Below are positions 1-7,622 of a stretch of 7,622 bases of DNA, in pieces. The position numbers and the translations under genes were made by a program. Below the pieces are notes generated by a model, which saw only the letters and a list, made by a program, of their open reading frames with translations, was not told where the DNA came from and searched no databases. The stretch comes from a virus (lineage: Duplodnaviria; Heunggongvirae; Uroviricota; Caudoviricetes): the IMG/VR virus record IMGVR_UViG_2690316142_000009. One strand, given 5' to 3'. Numbering within the stretch: position 1 is the first letter of the stretch; each line of letters starts with the position of its first letter.

Positions 1-34
1 AGGAAGGAGTGTCCGTTAAACTCAGGCTACCTCA
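1..34 (-). mobile_element. Terminal inverted repeat (orfA-proximal end) of a second IS3-family copy whose body lies upstream of the window
   Basis: Bases 1-34 (AGGAAGGAGTGTCCGTTAAACTCAGGCTACCTCA) are identical 34/34 to 5645-5678, the orfA-proximal end of the complete IS at 4425-5678. Identity stops at 35 (GGTTATTCGC versus AAAACACGAT at 5679). Same orientation as the complete copy. Confidence 0.6.
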
Positions 35-711
35 GGTTATTCGCTTCTGGGCATGGGCGGATCAACAAATGATAGACGGTAATGCAGATTGTAACGCTCG
101 CGGCGTTACAAAAAGTGCAATAGATCGCATCACTTTTATGTCTGGTTTTGCTGATGCGTTAATTCAGGTTGGATGGCTGGTCGAAAATGACGGAGGGCTT
201 TCTCTACCTAACTTTGAACGTCATAACGGAAAAAGCTCTAAAAAAAACGGGCGGTTACAAACGAGCGAGTAACAAAAATACGCGAACTGAAACGAAAAGG
301 TAACGCTGCCAGCGTTACACAAACGGATCAAAAAGCGTTACCAGAGGAAGAGGAAGAGGAAGATCTAAATACTGATCTCCCCCTCGCCAAAAACGAGCGT
401 CTAAAAAATTCGAGCCGGAGGCTATTGAGCTGCCCGATTGGTTGCCGGAAACACTCTGGCATGAGTGGGTCCGGTTCAGACAGGCATTGCGAAAACCGAT
501 TCGAACGGAGCAGGGCGCTAACGGGGCGATACGGGAACTGGAAAAATTCCGTCAGCAGGGTTTTACACCTGAGCAGGTGATTCGACACAGCATCGCCAAT
601 GAATACCAGGGCCTGTTCGCGCCGAAAGGTGTTCGGCCTGAGACGTTGCTCCGACAGGTTAACACCGTCTCGTTGCCGGACAGTGCGATCCCGCCAGGCT
701 TCAGGGGGTAA
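35..711 (+). pseudogene. Remnant of a phage replication-initiator / replisome-organizer gene, 5' end removed by the IS and reading frame broken twice
   Basis: Three consecutive protein-like open stretches in different frames: frame 0 (35-272, ...FWAWADQQMIDGNADCNARGV...), frame 2 (open 242-577, KIRELKRKGNAASVTQTDQKALPEEEEEED) and frame 1 (open 376-711, ...KKFEPEAIELPDWLPETLWHEWVRFRQALRKPIRTEQG...). No ATG/GTG with an SD begins the frame-1 segment. Lies directly upstream of the DnaC-like gene, as initiator genes do in lambdoid phages. Family identity not verified. Confidence 0.45.
344..361 (+). repeat. (GAGGAA)x3 hexanucleotide repeat, encoding an acidic EEEEEE run in frame 2
   Basis: Direct reading: gaggaagaggaagaggaa at 344-361. 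Confidence 0.5.
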
Positions 712-717
712 CGGACC

Positions 718-1464
718 ATGAAAAATATTGCGACAGGCGGCGTTCTGGAACGCATCCGCCGACTGACCCCGCCACATGTAACCGCCCCATTCAGAACGGT
801 AGCGGAGTGGCGCGAGTGGCAACTTGCTGAAGGCCAGAAACGTAGCGAGGAGATCAACCGCCTGAATCGCCAGTTGCGGGTGGAAAAAATTCTGAATCGC
901 TCAGGCATCCAGCCGTTGCACCGTAAATGCTCGTTTGCGAATTACCAGGTGCAGAACGACGGCCAGCGATACGCGTTAAGCCAGGCGAAATCCATCGCCG
1001 ATGAACTGATGACCGGGTGTACAAATTTTGCGTTCAGCGGAAAACCTGGTACCGGGAAGAATCACTTAGCGGCAGCTATCGGGAATCGCCTGCTGAAAGA
1101 CGGTCAGACAGTGATTGTGGTTACCGTGGCTGATGTTATGAGCGCCCTGCACGCCAGCTATGACGACGGGCAGTCAGGCGAAAAATTTTTGCGGGAGCTG
1201 TGCGAAGTGGATCTGCTGGTTCTTGATGAAATTGGCATTCAGCGCGAGACGAAAAACGAGCAGGTGGTGCTGCACCAGATTGTTGATCGCCGGACAGCGT
1301 CGATGCGCAGCGTGGGGATGCTGACAAACCTGAACTATGAGGTGATGAAAACATTGCTCGGCGAGCGGGTGATGGATCGCATGGTCATGAACGGCGGGCG
1401 CTGGGTGAATTTTAACTGGGAGAGCTGGCGTCCGAATGTTAGCCATTCGAGGGTTGTTAAGTAG
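718..1464 (+). CDS. DnaC-like AAA+ helicase loader (functional analogue of lambda P; compare Rac YdaV, also 248 aa)
   Basis: 248-aa ORF. Walker A-like FSGKPGTGKNHLAAAIG and Walker B-like LLVLDEIG in DnaC-like spacing. G-rich SD-like stretch (GGGGG) 9 nt upstream of the ATG. Positioned after the initiator remnant. Confidence 0.85.
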   Translation: MKNIATGGVLERIRRLTPPHVTAPFRTVAEWREWQLAEGQKRSEEINRLNRQLRVEKILNRSGIQPLHRKCSFANYQVQNDGQRYALSQAKSIADELMTGCTNFAFSGKPGTGKNHLAAAIGNRLLKDGQTVIVVTVADVMSALHASYDDGQSGEKFLRELCEVDLLVLDEIGIQRETKNEQVVLHQIVDRRTASMRSVGMLTNLNYEVMKTLLGERVMDRMVMNGGRWVNFNWESWRPNVSHSRVVK

Positions 1465-1478
1465 TTTCAGGAGGATTT

Positions 1479-1901
1479 ATGGCGAAACCTTTTACTCCCG
1501 AACAGCGGGAAGAACTGAAGACGCGAATTGTGGAACTCGTGCATCAGGACGGTCGGGTCACGATTCGGCAGTTGTCAGATGAAACAGGTATCAGTCGTGC
1601 GTCTGTCGGTCGCTTATGCATAGAACTGGTCGCAAGTGGTGATGTATATAATTCTGGCTACGGCTTATTCCCGTCTGAACAGGCTCGCAAGGACTGGCAA
1701 AGCGCCCGCAAAAAACTCTCGAGAGTAAAGGTGAGGAAACCGGTTGTTGTTGATCCGGACCTTATCTGGTCATTACCTGACGGAGAAATACGCCGCTACG
1801 ACAGGCGCCTGAATATAATCTGTCGCGAGTGCCGGAAGAGCGAAGCTATGCAGCGTGTACTGGCTTTCTATCAGGGTAATTTTCAGGAGGCGATACTGTG
1901 A
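1479..1901 (+). CDS. Hypothetical protein with N-terminal winged-HTH-like segment (140 aa)
   Basis: GGAGG SD 5-6 nt upstream of ATG 1479. HTH-like stretch VTIRQLSDETGISRASVGRLCIELVASGDV. Starts 15 nt after the DnaC-like gene and is immediately followed by the next gene. Function not recognised. Confidence 0.6.
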   Translation: MAKPFTPEQREELKTRIVELVHQDGRVTIRQLSDETGISRASVGRLCIELVASGDVYNSGYGLFPSEQARKDWQSARKKLSRVKVRKPVVVDPDLIWSLPDGEIRRYDRRLNIICRECRKSEAMQRVLAFYQGNFQEAIL

Positions 1902-1958
1902 ATGAAATTAGCTATCAGGCTTCAATTACCGCTGGCATTCGCATCAAAGGAGAGGAGC

Positions 1959-2315
1959 ATGGAAATAAAACCAGAAGATGAGTTAAGCAATATCGTTTTA
2001 TTTCCGGTAAAAGAGGATGACCCTCGTAATCAGGTTAATTTTCTTTATGAGCCATCGGAAAGACCATATTGCCATCACGCCTCTGTACGGGTTGACGAAA
2101 AAGAGCGTCAGGTCCGCTGTAAAATCTGCGGTGCGGTTGTGGAGCCGTTTGACTGGATGCTCTCTGTGGCAAAAAGAGAAACCAGACTGGCAGATGATGT
2201 AAGGCTATTGCGCCAGGAGGAACAGGAAAGGCGGAGAAATATAGAAAAGCTGATACAGATTGAGCGTAACGCGAAAGCGCGGATACGCAGGGCGACAAAA
2301 TCCAGAACTGAATAA
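1959..2315 (+). CDS. Hypothetical Zn-ribbon-like (C-H-H...C-x2-C) protein with basic, coiled-coil-like C-terminus (118 aa from ATG 1959)
   Basis: The ORF track starts at ATG 1902, which directly follows the upstream stop (TGAATG). The in-frame ATG at 1959 has a much stronger SD (AAGGAGAGGAG ending 4 nt upstream), so 1959 is preferred. Cys/His cluster YCHH...RCKICG, then an Arg/Glu/Lys-rich tail. Confidence 0.55.
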   Translation: MEIKPEDELSNIVLFPVKEDDPRNQVNFLYEPSERPYCHHASVRVDEKERQVRCKICGAVVEPFDWMLSVAKRETRLADDVRLLRQEEQERRRNIEKLIQIERNAKARIRRATKSRTE

Positions 2316-2462
2316 TTAAATTTAGCACTGTTAAAAATTTAATCCTTAACCGGAGGGATTTCTGCACCCTCAAATCATCAGGAGACCACCCGAAAGGGCG
2401 GGGAGCAGTCACACATCTGTTTCCGATAGCCCCGTTCTAATGCTACACTCTTTGATATTTTT

Positions 2463-3149
2463 ATGACCCCAATAAACATATTTATGACAGTTGCTGATTT
2501 CAAACGGCCCAAATTGGAGCTCCCAAACGGGGCAAACAAACTACTACTGCACTCTTGCTGTGCTCCATGTTCCGGTGAGGTGATGGAGGCGCTTCAGGCC
2601 TCGGGAATCGACTACACCATCTTTTTCTACAACCCGAACATTCATCCTCAGAAAGAGTATTTAATTCGTAAGGATGAGAATATTCGCTTTGCTGAACAAC
2701 ACGGCGTGCCGTTTATTGATGCTGATTACGACACAGACAACTGGTTTGAACGAGCCAAAGGAATGGAATGGGAGCCCGAACGAGGGATCCGTTGCACCAT
2801 GTGTTTTGACATGCGTTTTGAGCGGACAGCGCTGTACGCCGCTGAAAATGGTTTCAGTGTGATCAGCAGTTCACTGGGCATTTCACGCTGGAAAAATATG
2901 CAGCAGGTTAACGACTGTGGGCGGCGAGCCGTCGCGCATTATCCGGGCATGGTGTACTGGGATTATAACTGGCGCAAGCAGGGCGGCTCGTCCCGTATGA
3001 TTGAAATCAGCAAGCGCGAAAAATTCTATCAGCAGGAATATTGTGGCTGTGTGTATTCTCTGCGCGATACCAATCTACACCGCAAATCTCAGGGACGCCC
3101 TCTTATCAAAATTGGTCAACTCCACTACGGTAAAGAAGAGAAGGAGTGA
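2463..3149 (+). CDS. queH: QueH-like (DUF208) Fe-S protein, putative epoxyqueuosine reductase
   Basis: 228-aa ORF with Cys motifs [24 protein letters not shown] and YCGCVY, which I recall as characteristic of the DUF208/QueH family. No HMM run. Start uncertain: neither ATG 2463 nor in-frame ATG 2485 has an SD. Confidence 0.55.
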
Positions 3150-3204
3150 TTTTATGGGGCACCTTTCTGATTGATTTCATATTGGCGAGGTAAGTAGAAT
3201 GACT

Positions 3205-3218
3205 GCGGGTGCTTGAGG
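3205..3218 (+). promoter_or_regulatory. hok mRNA 5' fold-back-inhibition (fbi) element
   Basis: GCGGGTGCTTGAGG at 3205-3218 is the reverse complement of CCTCAACGCACCCGC at 3590-3604, apart from a 1-nt bulge. This 5'/3' long-range pairing is the known hallmark of hok-family mRNAs. Confidence 0.5.
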
Positions 3219-3261
3219 CTATCTGCTTCAGGCATGAACACCAAAAGGCAGATAGAGAAAA

Positions 3262-3328
3262 GCCCCAGTTAACATTACGCGTCCGGCAAGACGCTTAACA
3301 TTAATCTGAGGCCAATTTCATGCTTTGC
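3262..3328 (-). ncRNA. sok: Sok-like antisense RNA (approximate extent), antisense to the hok leader
   Basis: Minus-strand sigma70-like promoter: -35 TTGCCT (reverse complement of 3358-3363), 17-bp spacer, -10 TAACCT (reverse complement of 3335-3340). Transcription would start near 3328 and run antisense across the upstream ATG/leader region, as expected for Sok. 3' end not defined; no clean terminator found. Confidence 0.3.
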
Positions 3329-3376
3329 ACATGTAGGTTAGCCTCTTACATGCCGAAAGGCAAGGAGAAGCAGGCT

Positions 3377-3532
3377 ATGAAGCAGCAAAAGGCGATGTTA
3401 ATCGCCCTGATCGTCATCTGTTTAACCGTCATAGTGACGGCACTGGTAACGAGGAAAGACCTCTGTGAGGTACGAATCCGAACCGGCCAGACGGAGGTCG
3501 CTGTCTTCGTAGACTACGAATCCAGGAAGTAA
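3377..3532 (+). CDS. hok: Hok/Gef-family type I toxin (51 aa, membrane peptide)
   Basis: MKQQKAMLIALIVICLTVIVTALVTRKDLCEVRIRTGQTEVAVF... is a near-match to the Hok/Gef family as I recall it, closest to HokD/RelF. AAGGAG SD 10 nt upstream of ATG 3377. The 70-aa ORF-track entry (3320-3532) is the same frame extended to an upstream ATG. Confidence 0.9.
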   Translation: MKQQKAMLIALIVICLTVIVTALVTRKDLCEVRIRTGQTEVAVFVDYESRK

Positions 3533-3589
3533 GAGTGACCGGGCGGGGAGCTGATCCCATCCCCGCCCACCTCTGATGTGTCAGGCATC

Positions 3590-3604
3590 CTCAACGCACC
3601 CGCA
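3590..3604 (+). promoter_or_regulatory. hok mRNA 3' fbi partner element
   Basis: Complementary to 3205-3218 (see that feature). A perfect 9-bp GC-rich hairpin (GGGCGGGGA at 3541-3549 pairing with TCCCCGCCC at 3560-3568) lies just upstream of it in the 3' UTR. Confidence 0.5.
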
Positions 3605-3610
3605 CTTAAC

Positions 3611-3659
3611 CCGCCCATCGCTGTGATCTCTCAGCGTTTCGGCGGGTTTTTTGTTGTTT
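3611..3659 (+). terminator. Intrinsic terminator at the 3' end of the hok transcript
   Basis: Composite helix: CCGCC 3611-3615 pairs with GGCGG 3641-3645, and CGCTG 3619-3623 pairs with CAGCG 3632-3636. Followed by T-rich tract TTTTTTGTTGTTT (3647-3659). Confidence 0.6.
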
Positions 3660-3672
3660 ATTTCCGGTGAAT

Positions 3673-3700
3673 TTGATTCGCGCACCTTCGCAGATAGAAT
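3673..3700 (+). promoter_or_regulatory. Candidate sigma70 promoter for the 95-aa ORF
   Basis: -35 TTGATT (3673-3678), 16-bp spacer, -10 TAGAAT (3695-3700), about 80 nt upstream of ATG 3782. Sequence match only. Confidence 0.35.
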
Positions 3701-3781
3701 CGACTCACTTAAGTAGCGCGCAGGGAGAAGAGGGATGGACCCCGAACAGGGGAGAGCTATTTATCTGGAAGGATTCTGAAG

Positions 3782-4069
3782 ATGAAAATCGAAGAATTGC
3801 GTGAAATTTTTAGTGAAAATGGCCTCTATGCTGTGCGCGTTGAGAATGGAGCGATTGTCAGCCATTGCCGCATTAGATGTTTGCAATCTCAACAAAGGAA
3901 GAGCGGTGCTGTGTTATTTTATTTTTGTAATGGACTTCTGACGGACGGTTTTATTTTGCGTGAGGACGAATTTGTCACATCATTACGGGTTTTGAAAGAG
4001 ATTGGTTTTAAGGCTGGTTTTCTGCTTTTGCTGAAGAATAAACTCATCTACAATCTTGAGCAGGATTGA
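3782..4069 (+). CDS. Hypothetical small protein (95 aa), AT-rich moron-like gene upstream of DUF1367 copy 1
   Basis: ATG 3782 with AAGGA about 8 nt upstream. Visibly more AT-rich than its neighbours. Weak N-terminal similarity to the 70-aa ORF at 5773-5985 (EELREIFSENGLYAVRVENGAIV versus KKLFSSKYAVIRRDDLSVIV). Occupies the same position relative to hok as rem does next to hokD in the Qin prophage; identity not verified. Confidence 0.5.
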   Translation: MKIEELREIFSENGLYAVRVENGAIVSHCRIRCLQSQQRKSGAVLFYFCNGLLTDGFILREDEFVTSLRVLKEIGFKAGFLLLLKNKLIYNLEQD

Positions 4070-4107
4070 ACTCCTGCTGTGTAACACCGTGCCACCGGAG
4101 AAAGCCG

Positions 4108-4424
4108 ATGGCACATATACAACTGGTCAAACAAACCTCTTCCGGATTACTTCTCCCGGCGACGCCGGAGAGTTGCGATTTTCTGCATCAAATCAAAACA
4201 GGTGAGTGGATACACGCAGACTTTAAGCGTGTGCGTAACTACGCATTCCACAAGCGTTTTTTCAAACTCCTGCAACTGGGATTCGATTACTGGACTCCGG
4301 TCGGTGGGGCGATCACGCCTCGCGAACGAAAACTGGTGTCCGGTTTCGTTGATTACCTGTGTGAATCAGTAGGCCGGGAACATACGCCAGCTCTGAGCGA
4401 AGCCGCAGAGCAATTGAGGTGTAC
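4108..4424 (+). pseudogene. DUF1367-like nin-region gene, copy 1, truncated after about codon 105 by the IS
   Basis: 4106-4424 is about 97% identical to 6055-6363 (the intact copy at 6057-6656). Identity ends exactly at the IS end (4425, TGAGGT...). The ORF then runs into IS sequence (LRCTGNSGHYHLFFF) to a stop at 4461. GGAG SD upstream of ATG 4108. Confidence 0.7.
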
Positions 4425-4457
4425 TGGCAATAGCGGACACTACCATTTGTTCTTTTT

Positions 4458-5276
4458 TTAAGCAGCCATCTGATGATATTTTTCCCTGAAGGCTGCCGGG
4501 GAGATATTCCCCAGACGAGAGTGACGACGCTGACGATTGTAGAAAATCTCAATGTATTCCCGTATTACTGAGATGGCTTCATCCCGGTTATTAAAACGAT
4601 AGTGGCTCAGGCTCTCATTTTTCAGCGTTCCCCAGAAGCTTTCCATCGGAGCGTTGTCGTAACAGTTACCTTTACGCGACATTGATGTTTTCAGACCAGA
4701 CTGCTCCTGTATGACCCGGTAATCGTATGCGCAGTACTGTGAACCTCGATCAGAGTGGTGGATTAGCCCGGCAGGTGGGCGCTGGCTCCTGAGCGCCATA
4801 AACAGGGCTTTACCTGTCAGCTCTTTTGTCATGCGCTCTCCCATGGCGTAGCCGACAATTTCGCACGTATAAACATCTTTGATGCCAGCGAGGTACAACC
4901 ATCCCTCCTGTGTGGCAACATACGTCAGGTCCGCCACCCAGACCTGATTTGGTGCTGTAGGAGCGAACGTCTGGTTCAGCAGATTTGGCGCAACTGGCAG
5001 ATTGTGGTTCGAGTTCGTAGTCGCTCTGAACTTGCGTTTCTGCTTACAGCGTAGCCTTAGCTCCTTACGAAGACGTGCCAGTCGGTCACGACCAACGATG
5101 ATGCCATTCTCTGCCAGCTCCGTCTGGAGCCGCCGGGTTCCATATGTTTCGCGAGTGCGGATATGTGCCACCTTAATCTCCAGTTTTAGCCGCTCATCAC
5201 TTTGTTTTCTGTCTGAGGGTTCATGCTGTACCCAGTTGTAATAACCGCTCCTGGATACACCAAATACCTGACACAT
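4458..5276 (-). CDS. IS3-family transposase OrfB (DDE catalytic domain), expected to be made as an OrfAB fusion
   Basis: 272-aa ORF. Its frame stays open upstream through the slippery site, and is -1 relative to orfA (manual translation: ...ILKK then SNSVFCTGVAEKYALIEQWRQQFPIEAMCQVFGV..., no stops). Confidence 0.85.
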   Translation of the reverse strand: MCQVFGVSRSGYYNWVQHEPSDRKQSDERLKLEIKVAHIRTRETYGTRRLQTELAENGIIVGRDRLARLRKELRLRCKQKRKFRATTNSNHNLPVAPNLLNQTFAPTAPNQVWVADLTYVATQEGWLYLAGIKDVYTCEIVGYAMGERMTKELTGKALFMALRSQRPPAGLIHHSDRGSQYCAYDYRVIQEQSGLKTSMSRKGNCYDNAPMESFWGTLKNESLSHYRFNNRDEAISVIREYIEIFYNRQRRHSRLGNISPAAFREKYHQMAA

Positions 5277-5311
5277 CGCTTCAATGGGAAATTGTTGTCG
5301 CCATTGTTCGA

Positions 5312-5614
5312 TTAACGCGTATTTTTCAGCGACTCCTGTGCAAAATACGCTGTTGCTTTTTTTAATATATCTCGCTCAAGGCGAGCTTCATTTAACGCCT
5401 TACGCAGTTGCAGAATTTCAGATTCCAGTTCAGCCACCGTGCGGGAACCAGGAGTACCGAGCCCTTTTCTGGCGGCGGTAACCCATTGTCCTAAAGTGCC
5501 TTCAGGAAGAGATAATCGGGAAGCGCCTTCACTGATCGAAAGTTGATTTTCAAGAACCGTTCTGACAGCTTCGGCTTTGAACTCTTTAGAGTAACGTTGG
5601 GTTTTTCTGCTCAT
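5312..5614 (-). CDS. IS3-family transposase OrfA (HTH DNA-binding / leucine-zipper component)
   Basis: 100-aa ORF starting about 30 nt inside the IS end. Heptad-like LxxxxxxL region (ELESEILQLRKALNEARLERDILKKA). Ends 15 codons after the slippery site. Confidence 0.85.
   Translation of the reverse strand: MSRKTQRYSKEFKAEAVRTVLENQLSISEGASRLSLPEGTLGQWVTAARKGLGTPGSRTVAELESEILQLRKALNEARLERDILKKATAYFAQESLKNTR
5357..5363 (-). other. Programmed -1 ribosomal frameshift slippery heptamer (A_AAA_AAA then G) joining orfA to orfB
   Basis: Minus strand reads TTA AAA AAA GCA in the orfA frame. The -1 frame from this point is open into orfB. Classic IS3-family arrangement. Confidence 0.6.
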
Positions 5615-5772
5615 TATTAGCTCCTTCTGATGCCATTCTATTTCAGGAAGGAGTGTCCGTTAAACTCAGGCTACCTCAAAAACACGATCATACACTAAAT
5701 CAGTAAGTTGGCAGCATCACCTTTTGTCTCTATGTTGATATAACCGTTTGTACTTATAAACCTGGAGGCATC

Positions 5773-5985
5773 GTGGAAAAAATAAAGAAACTATTTAGTA
5801 GTAAATACGCAGTCATACGTCGTGATGACCTGTCAGTTATAGTCGAAATGGATTACTTCCCTGAAACCAAAAAATCAATGATGTATCGTAATGGTCGAAA
5901 GGCAATTTTTTTACCGATGAGGGTAAGTGACATTATGGGAAATGATAAACTGCTGGATGAATTGCGAGTCAGAGCATCCTGTTAG
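5773..5985 (+). CDS. Hypothetical small protein (70 aa, GTG start), AT-rich, upstream of DUF1367 copy 2
   Basis: GGAGG (5764-5768) 4 nt upstream of GTG 5773. Begins about 95 nt after the IS end. Weak similarity to the 95-aa ORF at 3782. Function not recognised. Confidence 0.45.
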   Translation: MEKIKKLFSSKYAVIRRDDLSVIVEMDYFPETKKSMMYRNGRKAIFLPMRVSDIMGNDKLLDELRVRASC

Positions 5986-6056
5986 TATTGGCATTAATTC
6001 TGGTATACTACATAACGGGCTGAACACCCATTCTACTGCGCCAGCGGAGAACTACG

Positions 6057-6656
6057 ATGGCGCATATACAACTGATCAAACAAACCTCTTCCGGATTACT
6101 TCTCCCGGCGACGCCGGAGAGTTGCGATTTTCTGCATCAAATCAAAACAGGTGAGTGGATACACGCAGACTTTAAGCGTGTGCGTAACTACGCATTCCAC
6201 AAGCGTTTTTTCAAACTCCTGCAACTGGGATTCGATTACTGGACTCCGGTCGGTGGGGCGATCACGCCTCGCGAACGAGAACTGCTGTCTGGTTTCGTTG
6301 ATTACCTGTGCGAATCAGTAGGTCGGGAACATACGCCAGCTCTGAGCGAAGCCGCAGAGCAATATCTGAATACAGTTGCGACACGCAGAACCCGGGATAC
6401 GGCATTGCTAAAGTCGTTTGAGGCTTTTCGCGAGTGGGTAACCATTCAGGCTGGATTTTACACCGAACATTTTTATCCGGACGGTAGCCGCGGGCGTCGG
6501 GCAAAATCCATCGCTTTTGCGAATATGGACGAAACCGAGTTTCAGCAGGTTTATAAATCTGTTCTGAATGTGCTGTGGAACTGGATTCTGTTCCGTAAAT
6601 TTTCCTCTCCGGAACAAGTCGAAAATGTGGCCGCGCAGCTGCTGGAGTTTGCGTAA
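6057..6656 (+). CDS. DUF1367-like nin-region protein (199 aa), intact copy
   Basis: GGAGA SD 7 nt upstream of the ATG. Stop overlaps the next start (TAATG). N-terminal 105 codons duplicated at 4108-4424. Family label from memory of nin-region proteins (YbcN-like), not verified. Confidence 0.7.
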   Translation: MAHIQLIKQTSSGLLLPATPESCDFLHQIKTGEWIHADFKRVRNYAFHKRFFKLLQLGFDYWTPVGGAITPRERELLSGFVDYLCESVGREHTPALSEAAEQYLNTVATRRTRDTALLKSFEAFREWVTIQAGFYTEHFYPDGSRGRRAKSIAFANMDETEFQQVYKSVLNVLWNWILFRKFSSPEQVENVAAQLLEFA

Positions 6657-6946
6657 TGGTGGATTTACGTAAAGCGGCGCGGGGGCAGATGTGCACCGTC
6701 AGAATTCCTGGCTACTGCAATCACGATCCGGAAACGTCTGTGCTGGCGCATTACCGACTGGCGGGAACGTGCGGAACAGCGATAAAGCCACACGATATGC
6801 AGGCAGCGATTGCCTGTAGCTCGTGCCACGATTTAATCGACGGGCGGGTAAAAACCAGCGATTACACCAAAGAAGAATTACGCCTGATGCATGCAGAAGG
6901 TGTTTTTCGCACACAAGAAATCTGGAGAAAGGAGGGATATTTATGA
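6656..6946 (+). CDS. DUF1364 / YbcO-like Cys-rich nin-region protein (96 aa), putative metal-binding nuclease-like protein
   Basis: 96 aa with Cys clusters (CTVRIPGYC, CSSCHDLIDG). Same length and position as YbcO in DLP12-type nin regions. Translationally coupled on both sides (TAATG upstream, ATGA downstream). Confidence 0.6.
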   Translation: MVDLRKAARGQMCTVRIPGYCNHDPETSVLAHYRLAGTCGTAIKPHDMQAAIACSSCHDLIDGRVKTSDYTKEELRLMHAEGVFRTQEIWRKEGYL

Positions 6947-7497
6947 TTTACCCAACGAATACAGGAAAAAGCGGAGAACACCTTCGTCTCACCACGCTGG
7001 AAAGTGTCTGGATTCAGGGAAAACTACGTATGTGGGGGCGCTGGTCGTATATTGGTGGCGGTAAGACGGGGAATATGTTTAACCTGATGTTGACCTCTAA
7101 AAAGCTGACAAAAACGGCAATTAACGAGGCGCTCCGGAGGATGAAAAAAGCAGGTCTGAACAAGTCTGAACTTGAGGCTTTTTTGCGGGATATGATTAAC
7201 GGTAAGCAAAAGAGCTGGCTGGCGCATTGTACTGATGCAGAGGCGTTATGTATTGATCGGGTCATAAGTGAGGTGCTGGCAGAGCATCCAGGATTGATTA
7301 GCGTCCTTCGGCAACGGTATGAGGGGCGGGGGATGACCAAACGCAAAATGGCTGAACTGCTGAATGATGCACACCCGAAATGGAGTTTAAGAACCTGTGA
7401 AAGACGCATTGAGCATTGGCTAAAGGTGGCAGAATTTATTTTGTACAAACCAATGGTTATGGCTTTTGGTATAGAGAAAAAAGTTATTGCTTTTTGA
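6943..7497 (+). CDS. Putative late-gene antiterminator Q-like protein (184 aa from ATG 6943)
   Basis: Strong SD AAGGAGGG 6 nt upstream of ATG 6943, which overlaps the upstream stop. Last gene before a promoter-like TTGACG and a strong intrinsic terminator, the canonical Q / pR' / tR' arrangement. Assignment rests mainly on position; the ORF-track entry 6823-7497 is an upstream extension overlapping the previous gene. Confidence 0.5.
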   Translation: MIYPTNTGKSGEHLRLTTLESVWIQGKLRMWGRWSYIGGGKTGNMFNLMLTSKKLTKTAINEALRRMKKAGLNKSELEAFLRDMINGKQKSWLAHCTDAEALCIDRVISEVLAEHPGLISVLRQRYEGRGMTKRKMAELLNDAHPKWSLRTCERRIEHWLKVAEFILYKPMVMAFGIEKKVIAF

Positions 7498-7574
7498 CGT
7501 AAAAACTGCTTCAATTCTTGTACGCTTCGCAAAGCTGTACCGCGAGGCGAATAGCAGACATGGACATTTGAAAG

Positions 7575-7599
7575 AGCCCGCTTTATGCGGGTTTTTTTA
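7575..7599 (+). terminator. Rho-independent terminator (candidate tR' of the late-operon leader)
   Basis: Stem AGCCCGC (7575-7581), loop TTTAT, stem GCGGGTT (7587-7593), then a T7 run (7592-7598). About 80 nt downstream of the Q-like stop. Confidence 0.65.
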
Positions 7600-7622
7600 T
7601 ACCTGAAAAACGGCACAGGACG

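Follow-up and report, generated by a model that had tools for sequence, protein, structure and literature searches.

Two lambdoid prophage segments joined across an insertion sequence, with a predicted antirepressor slot upstream of DUF1367

Introduction

Rem, from the Qin prophage of Escherichia coli K-12, has been shown experimentally to be an antirepressor of DicA, and it derepresses a DicA-controlled promoter 165-fold (Ragunathan et al. 2023, PMC10448788). In the Gifsy phages, an antirepressor slot has been mapped just upstream of irsA, a DUF1367 gene, and the antirepressor activity of GftA and GfoA is taken here from that work (Lemire, Figueroa-Bossi and Bossi 2011, PMC3121763). The gene order at this point in Gifsy-2 is dinI, a 73-aa ORF with a GTG start, and STM1020.

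The window analysed here is a complete draft contig of 7,622 nucleotides (CXBN01000199.1). It contains two small ORFs, of 95 and 70 aa (ORF95 and ORF70), each followed by a DUF1367 gene, on the two sides of an insertion sequence (IS). The original prediction regarded these as one module, duplicated and diverged around the IS, in which DUF1367 has the small ORF as a rapidly evolving partner with a role in specificity, immunity or anti-defence. Our own reading, which we consider probable, is that the same early-right (“nin”) stretch from two lambdoid prophages has been joined through IS600 and 43 nt of IS1, that the small ORF fills an antirepressor slot (with Rem in the case of ORF95 and a sister family in the case of ORF70), and that DUF1367 is a neighbour only. 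The host of both prophages is most likely Shigella sonnei.

Results

The window opens at the contig edge with the right end of an IS600 copy (1–34, minus strand; identical to 5645–5678), at a position where the closed relatives L332 and L333 have a full IS600 inserted in a replication gene. A hok/sok toxin-antitoxin locus (3207–3532, plus strand) forms the conserved left border of a variable cassette; sok is matched in Rfam at 3207–3382 (117 bits) and Hok in Pfam (PF01848, E 1e-22), and the Rfam scan returned sok and tRNAs and nothing else. The cassette of the first prophage, 477 nt long (3614–4090, plus strand), lies between hok and the ribosome-binding site of DUF1367, and holds ORF95 (3782–4069, plus strand). 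The DUF1367/irsA-type gene that follows (4108–4414, plus strand) keeps its 5′ 102 codons, corresponding to positions 1–102 of the 198 in PF07105, and is cut by a 1264-bp element of the IS3 family (4415–5678, minus strand), which we take to be IS600, carrying orfA and orfB on that same strand (ORFs at 5312–5614 and 4458–5276). The IS boundary is at 4414/4415, not at 4424 as first placed, and the IS does not directly adjoin the second copy as had been implied, with a 43-nt terminal remnant of IS1 (5679–5721, minus strand) intervening; E. coli matches to this copy begin at 5722. ORF70 (5773–5985, plus strand) is followed by the intact DUF1367 gene of the second prophage (6057–6656, plus strand; PF07105, E 3e-96; phrog_319), a homolog of irsA that is 53% identical to STM1020 of Gifsy-2 (E 1e-73); comparison of DUF1367 with the PDB sequences gave nothing relevant. 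Downstream in the same operon are a YbcO nuclease gene (6656–6946, plus strand; PF07102, E 8e-45) and a DUF1133 Q-like antiterminator gene (6943–7497, plus strand; PF06576, E 2e-107), in an order that is kept in all intact relatives. The repressor genes are outside this contig.

The two “copies” are corresponding segments of two Shigella prophages, joined across an IS. Positions 1–5678 are contiguous, at 99.6–99.9% identity, in L332 and L333, closed or near-closed relatives that have both IS600 insertions in common with the window and other sequence to the right of the IS600 at 4415–5678. Positions 5673–7622 are 100% identical to positions 9901–11850 of L322, a separate locus (L322/L327) with a full IS1 at the place of the remnant (insA/insB, 9197–9894). 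Identity over the whole of this segment rules out a crossing back of the second copy to the first prophage near 6670, a possibility raised by the identity of 6670–7622 to L001. In the closed genome HE616528.1, presumably that of S. sonnei 53G, the Rem module is found at 0.77–0.79 Mb and the ORF70 module at 1.94–1.96 Mb, 1.17 Mb apart, each with its own repressor, hok, DUF1367, YbcO and DUF1133 genes. The original prediction is right that two module copies flank the IS, but they did not duplicate and diverge in place: a tandem duplication does not agree with copies that are not adjacent in closed genomes, nor with the IS600 flanks, AAT and AAA, which lack a 3-bp target duplication. The IS600 at 4415–5678 matches numerous IS600 copies of closed genomes at 99.8–100% identity, and it represents a recombinant or chimeric junction.

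The second of these terms has to be weighed, as the contig may have been assembled through a collapsed multi-copy IS600, taking the left flank of one copy and the right flank of another. The missing target-site duplication is consistent with this, as is the nature of the window, a whole 7.6-kb draft contig that starts inside another IS600, and the sister assemblies L319 and L320 end at this very IS600. Where closed relatives share the DUF1367/IS600 junction, their sequence runs on into an integrase fragment and modC, and the joint of IS600, the 43-nt IS1 end and ORF70 is absent from all five closed or near-closed relatives compared (L332, L333 and three genomes holding the copy-2 locus). Among all loci compared, the IS600/IS1 junction occurs in the window's own contig only, and searches for the joint returned no match in species-representative genomes and no full-length match in complete E. 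coli genomes. Against an artefact, the junction coincides exactly with the terminus of IS600, lies within IS1 and has only 6 nt in common, and so resembles a true transposition joint more than a k-mer join; recombination between IS600 copies is common in Shigella, and the strain itself may differ from its relatives. We rate an assembly artefact at slightly below even chances. Its bearing is on the arrangement only, not on gene functions.

Mosaic cassette exchange is well established in the nin region of lambdoid phages. Similarity of the window to prophages of the copy-2 type, which is 91–92% in the hok region, ends at 3613 and returns at 4091. The DUF1367 parts, which had been put at about 97% identity, agree at 313 of 324 nt (96.6%; 4091–4414 versus 6040–6363), and this repeat starts 17 nt before the DUF1367 ATG, at the ribosome-binding site; on its side of the cassette, the 5′ fragment matches the intact L001 prophage at 99.6% identity as far as 4414. 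Among 80 loci, the slot has at least four alternative fillers. The small ORFs are AT-rich, each with its own Shine-Dalgarno sequence, as originally described: their GC content is 0.37–0.40 versus approximately 0.51 in DUF1367, and AGGA lies 8 nt upstream of the ATG of ORF95 and GGAGG 4 nt upstream of the GTG of ORF70.

Neither small protein had been placed in a recognised family, and both can be. Judged by its sequence, ORF95 is a homolog or ortholog of Rem, with 68% identity to the K-12 protein over 80 residues (BLASTP, E 2e-34), a match to phrog_340 (E 6e-20) and an assignment to PF27490 (“Rem”) that was precomputed on the exact protein. It is thus a member of a characterised family, an outcome that had been named in advance as speaking against the original prediction. 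Agreement with the Rem family over the full length fails at the C-terminus, where a 1-nt deletion near the 3′ end of the gene changes ...KAGFSAFEDE to ...KAGFLLLLKNKLIYNLEQD and an acidic tail to a hydrophobic/basic tail of 15 residues. This frameshifted tail may impair ORF95; the AF2 model has pLDDT below 50 at residues 84–95.

ORF70 belongs to phrog_1813 (E 2e-32) and is without a match in Pfam, NCBIfam and PADLOC. It lies 51 nt downstream of the IS1 end and 71 nt upstream of DUF1367. BLASTP finds no similarity between ORF70 and ORF95, direct comparison of ORF70 with Rem or GftA gives nothing significant, and neither BLASTP nor a first round of hhalign on shallow alignments connected ORF95, ORF70 and GftA with one another. 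A signal linking ORF70 to Rem became visible only once the ORF70 family was widened: its members match the Rem family phrog_340 with library-wide E-values of 3e-5 to 1e-3, and alignment of the two families by hhalign gives E 0.0017 over 89 columns, full length, at a probability of only 16%. The links run through intermediates in Salmonella. BLASTP relates ORF70 to a 79-aa protein from the arrangement LexA box-dinI-X-irsA (E 2e-13) and to an 82-aa slot protein with a TTG start (E 4e-5), and the latter matches phrog_340 (E 8e-21), phrog_1813 (E 4e-11) and phrog_4847 (E 0.04). From its position and TTG start, the 82-aa protein is probably GfoA/GfhA. The profile comparisons and the bridging protein therefore bear out the suggestion that ORF95 and ORF70 are homologs that have diverged, and ORF70 appears to be a remote homolog within the GfoA/Rem superfamily, of the sister family phrog_1813. 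Predicted structures are of low to moderate confidence (AF2 pLDDT 72 for ORF70 and 66 for ORF95), and both models have a beta-meander and a C-terminal helix; no fold is assigned, because Foldseek matched neither of them to a BFVD entry at E ≤ 0.001.

The type of small ORF follows the clade of the short, non-cleavable repressor of its prophage, and not DUF1367. All Rem-long loci in which the repressor was identified (L281, L282, L289, L330, L331, L333, L334 and L001) have a 135-aa repressor of the DicA clade, in four alleles that are 53–93% identical, and the Rem-bearing Qin prophage of K-12 likewise has DicA. The five of these loci where relatives of ORF95 are intact (L001, L330, L331, L333 and L334) carry a 135-aa repressor that is HTH-only and 61% identical to DicA. 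In 11 of 11 ORF70 loci, the repressor is either that of clade A, with 139 aa, or its allele of 129 aa (60% identical). The repressors of Rem-short loci are mostly of 153 or 154 aa, and one Rem-short locus (L280) has the ORF70-type repressor; loci lacking a small ORF have other repressors. Pfam finds HTH_3/HTH_31 only in the 139- and 129-aa repressors, and HTH domains only in the 135-aa repressors, with no S24 peptidase in either set. All the short repressors except the 158-aa type have a C-terminal LLxLFxxLPxSEQ-like motif in common. The association could stem from the common ancestry of the sampled prophages rather than from function.

In an alternative reading, ORF95 is Rem, and the small nin-region protein ORF70 has another function and resembles antirepressors only through a shared small fold or position. 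The failure of the direct comparisons and the low hhalign probability are what would be expected in that case; ORF70 is also free of LexA control, and an experimentally studied member of phrog_1813 exists only if the 79- or 82-aa protein is GfoA. Other evidence is harder to accommodate, namely consistent cross-family matches with library-wide E-values of 3e-5 to 4e-11, phrog_1813 members sitting in the mapped Salmonella antirepressor slot, and the strict linkage of ORF70 to one non-cleavable repressor clade. We consider a different function for ORF70 unlikely, at about one chance in several, and retain a predicted antirepressor activity, together with the identity of its repressor target, as the better reading.

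The co-occurrence counts weaken the model of a DUF1367 partner. ORF70-family genes do have DUF1367 directly downstream in 74 of 80 loci, the remainder being IS1 insertions or short contigs, and the order antirepressor-irsA is conserved from Salmonella to Shigella. Of 80 Rem-family loci, however, 48 have the unrelated DUF968/YdfU as the next gene and 28 have DUF1367, and no ORF of at least 31 aa precedes near-identical DUF1367 genes in 39 of the 77 loci with enough upstream sequence, so that a small ORF does not always accompany DUF1367. Non-polar deletions of irsA, the DUF1367 homolog, left Gifsy induction unaffected (PMC3121763). The PADLOC defence models match none of ORF95, ORF70 and DUF1367, which gives the proposed immunity or anti-defence pattern no support, and the modules come from separate prophages. 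The small ORFs do evolve fast, as proposed: dN/dS is 0.15–0.27 for ORF95 and 0.11–0.23 for ORF70, three to four times the 0.06–0.07 of DUF1367 at similar dS, although still well below 1. A role in specificity is plausible, but the inferred partner is then the repressor, whose clade the ORF type follows, and not DUF1367. Taken together, we regard a DUF1367 partner as improbable.

The same substitution pattern refutes the idea that the small ORFs are chance reading frames in AT-rich spacers, which we find barely credible. The ORFs are short and AT-rich and one starts with GTG; nevertheless, dN/dS stays at 0.11–0.27 at dS values reaching 2.4, conservation of the families extends over Escherichia, Shigella and Salmonella, a Shine-Dalgarno sequence precedes both ORFs, and the function of Rem has been demonstrated experimentally. 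ORF95 and ORF70 are coding genes under purifying selection.

Gifsy-type SOS control does not apply here, since neither a LexA box (CTGT-N8-ACAG, at most one mismatch) nor dinI is found near ORF95 or ORF70, which hok precedes; the intact upstream region of L002 has no such box either. Promoter scans gave consensus-level matches only.

Discussion

We propose that, in a stretch ordered hok/sok, small ORF, irsA/DUF1367, ybcO and Q-like gene, the position upstream of irsA/DUF1367 would be an antirepressor slot wherever the repressor is short and uncleavable, as in the DicA/GfoR/GtgR type. The small protein would bind the repressor dimer encoded by the prophage to which it belongs, and perhaps those of co-resident prophages, taking the repressor off its operators and so derepressing the early promoters. 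ORF95/Rem would be paired with the 135-aa DicA-like repressor and ORF70 with the 139- or 129-aa repressor, with DUF1367 as no more than a conserved downstream neighbour. ORF95 and ORF70 would look almost unrelated because the antirepressor lineages from which they descend diverged long ago and go with different clades of repressor. Within the Rem family, activity and repressor target have been demonstrated for K-12 Rem and DicA only; those of ORF95 and ORF70 are predicted. Much of this is ordinary: Rem is already characterised, ORF70 is predicted to be a further antirepressor of a familiar kind, and the “duplication” is a routine case of two prophage remnants brought side by side across an IS, perhaps by the assembly alone.

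In Enterobacteriaceae, phrog_1813 falls into approximately 27 clusters when grouped at 50% identity. Whether it is an unrecognised branch of the GfoA/Rem superfamily, and the slot of approximately 470 nt an exchangeable “induction key” that varies together with the non-cleavable repressor clade, we judge to be evenly balanced. If ORF70 is an antirepressor, it is a candidate induction factor for the widespread Rac/Qin-like prophages of E. coli, Shigella and Salmonella, whose repressors RecA cannot cleave. If the slot does act as such a key, polylysogenic Shigella and E. coli hold several keys and could cross-induce or cross-silence prophage remnants in response to a non-SOS signal. For annotation, we suggest that a small ORF just upstream of irsA/DUF1367 (or DUF968 in Qin-like phages) be treated as a putative occupant of the antirepressor slot.

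Comparison with known systems places the locus among familiar ones. As in other Shigella genomes where IS600 and IS1 rearrange prophage remnants, the IS ends are exact, no target is duplicated, both prophages contain several IS600 and IS1 copies and related closed genomes are arranged differently; the junction here differs in being known from one draft contig only. With lambdoid nin-region mosaicism the locus agrees in having a swapped cassette with sharp borders (the hok terminator and the ribosome-binding site of DUF1367) between flanks that are 91–100% identical, and in this respect nothing is out of the ordinary. ORF95 occupies the same place as Rem in the Qin prophage of K-12, between hokD and the final nin-region gene preceding Q. 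That final gene is DUF1367 here and DUF968/YdfU in Qin, and ORF95, whose activity is predicted, differs from Rem in its deletion and altered tail. Like GftA, GfoA and GfhA of the Gifsy phages (PMC3121763), a group of 70–82 aa with non-ATG starts, ORF70 is a small protein whose gene lies immediately upstream of an irsA/DUF1367 homolog, away from the immunity region, and the repressors of its prophages are likewise short and non-cleavable. Members of phrog_1813 and phrog_340 occupy the same slot in Salmonella, and hok/sok lies upstream here in place of the LexA-controlled dinI. ORF70 has the position that GftA has in Gifsy-2, while its similarity in sequence to GftA is only remote.

Organization of the window

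The gene content of the window is that of the early-right region of a lambdoid prophage. Its left part carries a DnaC-like gene (718-1464), DUF977 (1479-1901), hok/sok (3207-3532; Rfam sok, 117 bits; Hok, PF01848), the 95-aa small ORF that we call ORF95 (3782-4069) and a DUF1367 gene reduced to its first 102 codons (4108-4414). Next come an IS3-family element of 1264 bp (4415-5678), which we take to be IS600 and whose orfA/orfB lie on the minus strand, 43 nt of an IS1 end (5679-5721), a second small ORF, of 70 aa and with a GTG start (ORF70, 5773-5985), an intact DUF1367 (6057-6656), YbcO (6656-6946) and a DUF1133 Q-like gene (6943-7497). At its left edge (1-34) the contig carries the final 34 nt of another IS600, an insertion also present in the closed relatives L332 and L333; this IS600 interrupts the replication (O-like) gene, whose C-terminal stump is the 87-aa ORF at 9-272. 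A prophage-borne gene for the epoxyqueuosine reductase QueH (2463-3149; PF02677, E 2e-65) sits between the replication genes and hok.

The DUF1367 repeat (4091-4414 versus 6040-6363) starts at the ribosome-binding site of that gene and is identical at 313 of 324 positions, bearing out the roughly 97% given in the original prediction. The coordinates proposed there also hold, except that the IS boundary lies at 4414/4415 and not at 4424, and the IS1 remnant between the IS and the second copy had been overlooked. The IS600 at 4415-5678 has AAT on one side and AAA on the other, and hence lacks a 3-bp target duplication. In the closed genome CP061527.1 (L329, 10327-11140), the right end of an IS600 abuts the last 3' bases of a Rem-linked DUF1367, at 11129; together with the cut in the window, this means that IS600 has struck DUF1367 at two different sites.

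Origin of the two halves

The arrangement had been read as a duplicated module flanking an IS. However, window positions 34-4414 are 99.6% identical to an intact E. coli prophage (L001) with the order hokD, the same 95-aa ORF, intact DUF1367, DUF1364/YbcO and DUF1133, while the window from 5722 on matches a second prophage type (L002) with Hok, the 70-aa ORF, DUF1367, YbcO and DUF1133. In the closed genome HE616528.1, presumably S. sonnei 53G, the ORF95 module (771-791 kb) and the ORF70 module (1.94-1.96 Mb) lie in separate prophages, each with its own repressor, and the protein collection lists the exact small proteins under Shigella sonnei. As the modules occupy separate prophage loci in relatives, the two copies do not represent a local duplication; we hold with great confidence that the halves of the window are equivalent segments of two prophages.

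They may have come to be joined in either of two ways. Positions 1-5678 are unbroken in L332/L333, both IS600 insertions included, but there the IS600 is followed on the right by an integrase fragment and modC, unlike in the window. Positions 5673-7622 are 100% identical to the second-prophage locus (L322/L327), where a full IS1 lies just upstream of ORF70. An exact-protein look-up showed the window to be the whole of a draft contig, CXBN01000199.1 (GCA_001251235.1). Recombination between IS600 copies in the strain of the window would join the two segments. Alternatively, the join could be an artefact that arose when the assembler ran through a collapsed IS600, to which we give a little less than an even chance. 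The IS600/IS1 junction is absent from every other fetched locus, with no match in species-representative genomes and no full-length match in complete E. coli genomes, and two sister draft assemblies (L319, L320) end at the same IS600. Under recombination or artefact alike, the segments are those of two prophages.

Identity and kinship of the small ORFs

Neither small protein had been assigned to a family in the original prediction; each of them matches one. ORF95 is 68% identical to Rem, the antirepressor of DicA from the E. coli K-12 Qin prophage (E 2e-34), falls into Pfam PF27490 'Rem' and matches phrog_340, which makes it almost certainly Rem, by direct family membership. Our own Pfam scan of ORF95 was empty because PF27490 is missing from the release scanned. 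Rem relieves DicA repression of dicBp 165-fold, and was found by PSI-BLAST seeded with the Gifsy-1 antirepressor GfoA (Ragunathan et al. 2023, PMC10448788). Relative to the usual 86-aa Rem, ORF95 has lost 1 nt from a stretch of Ts (window 4015-4069), a deletion that swaps the acidic tail ...KAGFSAFEDE for 15 other residues, ...KAGFLLLLKNKLIYNLEQD. This 95-aa form is present on about 1000 contigs and is therefore fixed in a lineage. In a 57-aa 'short Rem', found in L018 (2765-2941) and at 16 further loci, the first 26 residues and the C-terminal helix are retained but the central hairpin is missing.

ORF70 matches phrog_1813 (E 2e-32). It has just 19 close clusters, and all those with a named source come from Escherichia or Shigella; searching 1.84 billion representatives in full with HMMER enlarged the family to 27 clusters, with the consensus gYAVIRCdD..VA..d.FP..eRalMYR.G....F.PL..dEI.GTP.L...L..RAGY. 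The suggestion that the small ORFs are diverged relatives finds no support when ORF70 and ORF95 are compared directly, but it does through this widened family: hhalign aligns it with the Rem family at E 0.0017 over 89 columns, spanning both proteins end to end. In a PHROGs scan of 10 diverse ORF70-family members, phrog_340 was the sole second family for nine (library-wide E 3e-5 to 9e-3), and both families share the C-terminal pattern [DE]-E-[FI]-[VI], 11 residues, [KR]-A-G-[FY]. Judged from these profiles, the two families are remotely related. AF2 models, of low to moderate confidence (pLDDT 72 for ORF70, 66 for ORF95), place strands before a C-terminal helix in both; Foldseek searches of the two models against viral models gave no match at E <= 0.001.

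Both ORFs are genuine genes and evolve under purifying selection, with dN/dS of 0.11-0.23 for ORF70 and 0.15-0.27 for ORF95/Rem. DUF1367 in the same loci has dN/dS of 0.06-0.07 at similar dS (0.49 versus 0.46). The small proteins thus change 3-4 times faster than DUF1367; this agrees with the fast evolution that had been proposed, but there is no positive selection. The exchanged cassette, about 470 nt long, is sharply delimited by the hok terminator on the left (3613/3614) and by the ribosome-binding site of DUF1367 on the right (4090/4091). The near-total dissimilarity of ORF70 and ORF95 reflects old family divergence and cassette exchange, not divergence after duplication.

DUF1367 and the repressor as candidate partners

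The original prediction made DUF1367 the conserved partner of the small gene, and proposed checking whether a small variable ORF always precedes it. We surveyed 80 viral contigs whose DUF1367 shares 96% identity or more with copy 2, and clustered the 450 nt upstream in 77 of them, three having too little upstream sequence. AT-rich filler without an ORF of 31 aa or more precedes DUF1367 in 39 of the 77, the 57-aa Rem variant in 17, the ORF70 type in 10 and the ORF95 type in eight; an IS lies upstream in two and hok directly adjoins in one. Conversely, the Rem family is followed by the unrelated DUF968/YdfU in 48 of 80 loci and by DUF1367 in 28. DUF1367 comes next after ORF70 in 74 of 80, with IS1 in between in five and one contig too short. 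Co-occurrence is therefore strict in neither direction. The filler is itself conserved, about 470 nt long and found ahead of roughly one in two near-identical DUF1367 genes (L007, 2590-3000; L016, 2535-3000). It has no Rfam match in L007, where a 754-aa uncharacterised ORF (323-2587) directly upstream replaces hok. A PADLOC search of defence models gave no match for the proposed immunity or anti-defence module.

Small-ORF type instead tracks the repressor, as compared across loci with 10-kb flanks and closed genomes. Full-length Rem always occurs with a 135-aa DicA-clade repressor, in all loci with a repressor identified and in K-12 Qin, and these repressors comprise four alleles, 53-93% identical. 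ORF70 is always accompanied by a 139-aa repressor or by the 129-aa allele of it (60% identity), in 11/11 loci. One of these is in PP818812, a deposited phage genome in which the repressor has been annotated as DicA. Short Rem is found with 153- or 154-aa repressors in eight loci and with the 139-aa type in one, and where the small ORF is missing the repressor is of yet another sort, be it a 158-aa type, a 132-aa type or a different clade of 139 aa. Apart from the 158-aa type, all carry a C-terminal LLxLFxxLPxSEQ-like motif, as in DicA and GtgR; in the repressors linked to ORF70 and full-length Rem, HTH domains are the sole Pfam domains, with no S24 peptidase. This pattern fits antirepressor-repressor pairing, with the prophage repressor, rather than DUF1367, as the putative partner, although the association may reflect shared ancestry of the sampled prophages. 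Of the original interpretation, diverged homologs with a likely specificity role survive; DUF1367 as partner and local duplication do not.

Sequences upstream of the small ORFs

No LexA box was found near ORF95 or ORF70, nor where the sequence upstream of the ORF70 type is intact. There is a consensus-level promoter match upstream of ORF95 (TTGATT-16-TAGAAT, 3673-3700). Another consensus-level match, TTGGCA-17-TATGTT at 5708-5736, lies partly in the IS1 end and partly in the native sequence ahead of ORF70, and could be a hybrid promoter made by the IS. In S. sonnei, IS1 (closed genomes; L322/L326/L327, 9197-9949) or its remnant (the window) lies 51 nt upstream of ORF70; in five viral contigs, IS1 is inserted just after ORF70 instead (for example, L194, 2715-3300). 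IS1 seems to favour the spacers between hok, ORF70 and DUF1367 as insertion sites.

The antirepressor slot

The Gifsy operon has been described as dinI, antirepressor and irsA homolog, with non-polar irsA deletions leaving induction unaffected (Lemire et al., PMC3121763). Gifsy-2 has the order dinI, a 73-aa GTG-start ORF and STM1020, and STM1020 is 53% identical to the DUF1367 of the window. From this likeness and the operon order it follows that DUF1367 is the irsA family, and that the small ORF directly upstream of it stands in a known antirepressor position.

We surveyed this slot in 80 Salmonella contigs with Gifsy-type irsA (L337-L416; slot about 300 nt upstream of position 1501). There are three main alternatives, the GftA type (73 aa), an 82-aa TTG-start type and a 79-aa type, and each locus checked for these three has a dinI homolog upstream, together with a perfect LexA box; a fourth, ORF70-like type (three loci) is preceded by hok, without a LexA box. 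The 82-aa type, probably GfoA/GfhA from its position and start codon, matches phrog_340 (E 8e-21), phrog_1813 (E 4e-11) and the GftA family phrog_4847 (E 0.04), and the 79-aa type matches phrog_1813 (E 3e-38). This suggests that the slot alternatives form one superfamily with swappable members. Since ORF70 aligns with the 79-aa (E 2e-13) and 82-aa (E 4e-5) slot proteins, ORF70 and ORF95 would belong to one small-antirepressor superfamily, ORF70 through a chain of homology. We therefore lean towards ORF70 being an antirepressor, as a prediction from sequence. Rem was already known; ORF70 is a predicted addition to the small antirepressors. Like the Gifsy-2 slot ORF, ORF70 is small, has a GTG start and lies upstream of irsA/DUF1367; whereas dinI precedes the antirepressor in Gifsy, hok/sok and not dinI comes before the small ORF here.
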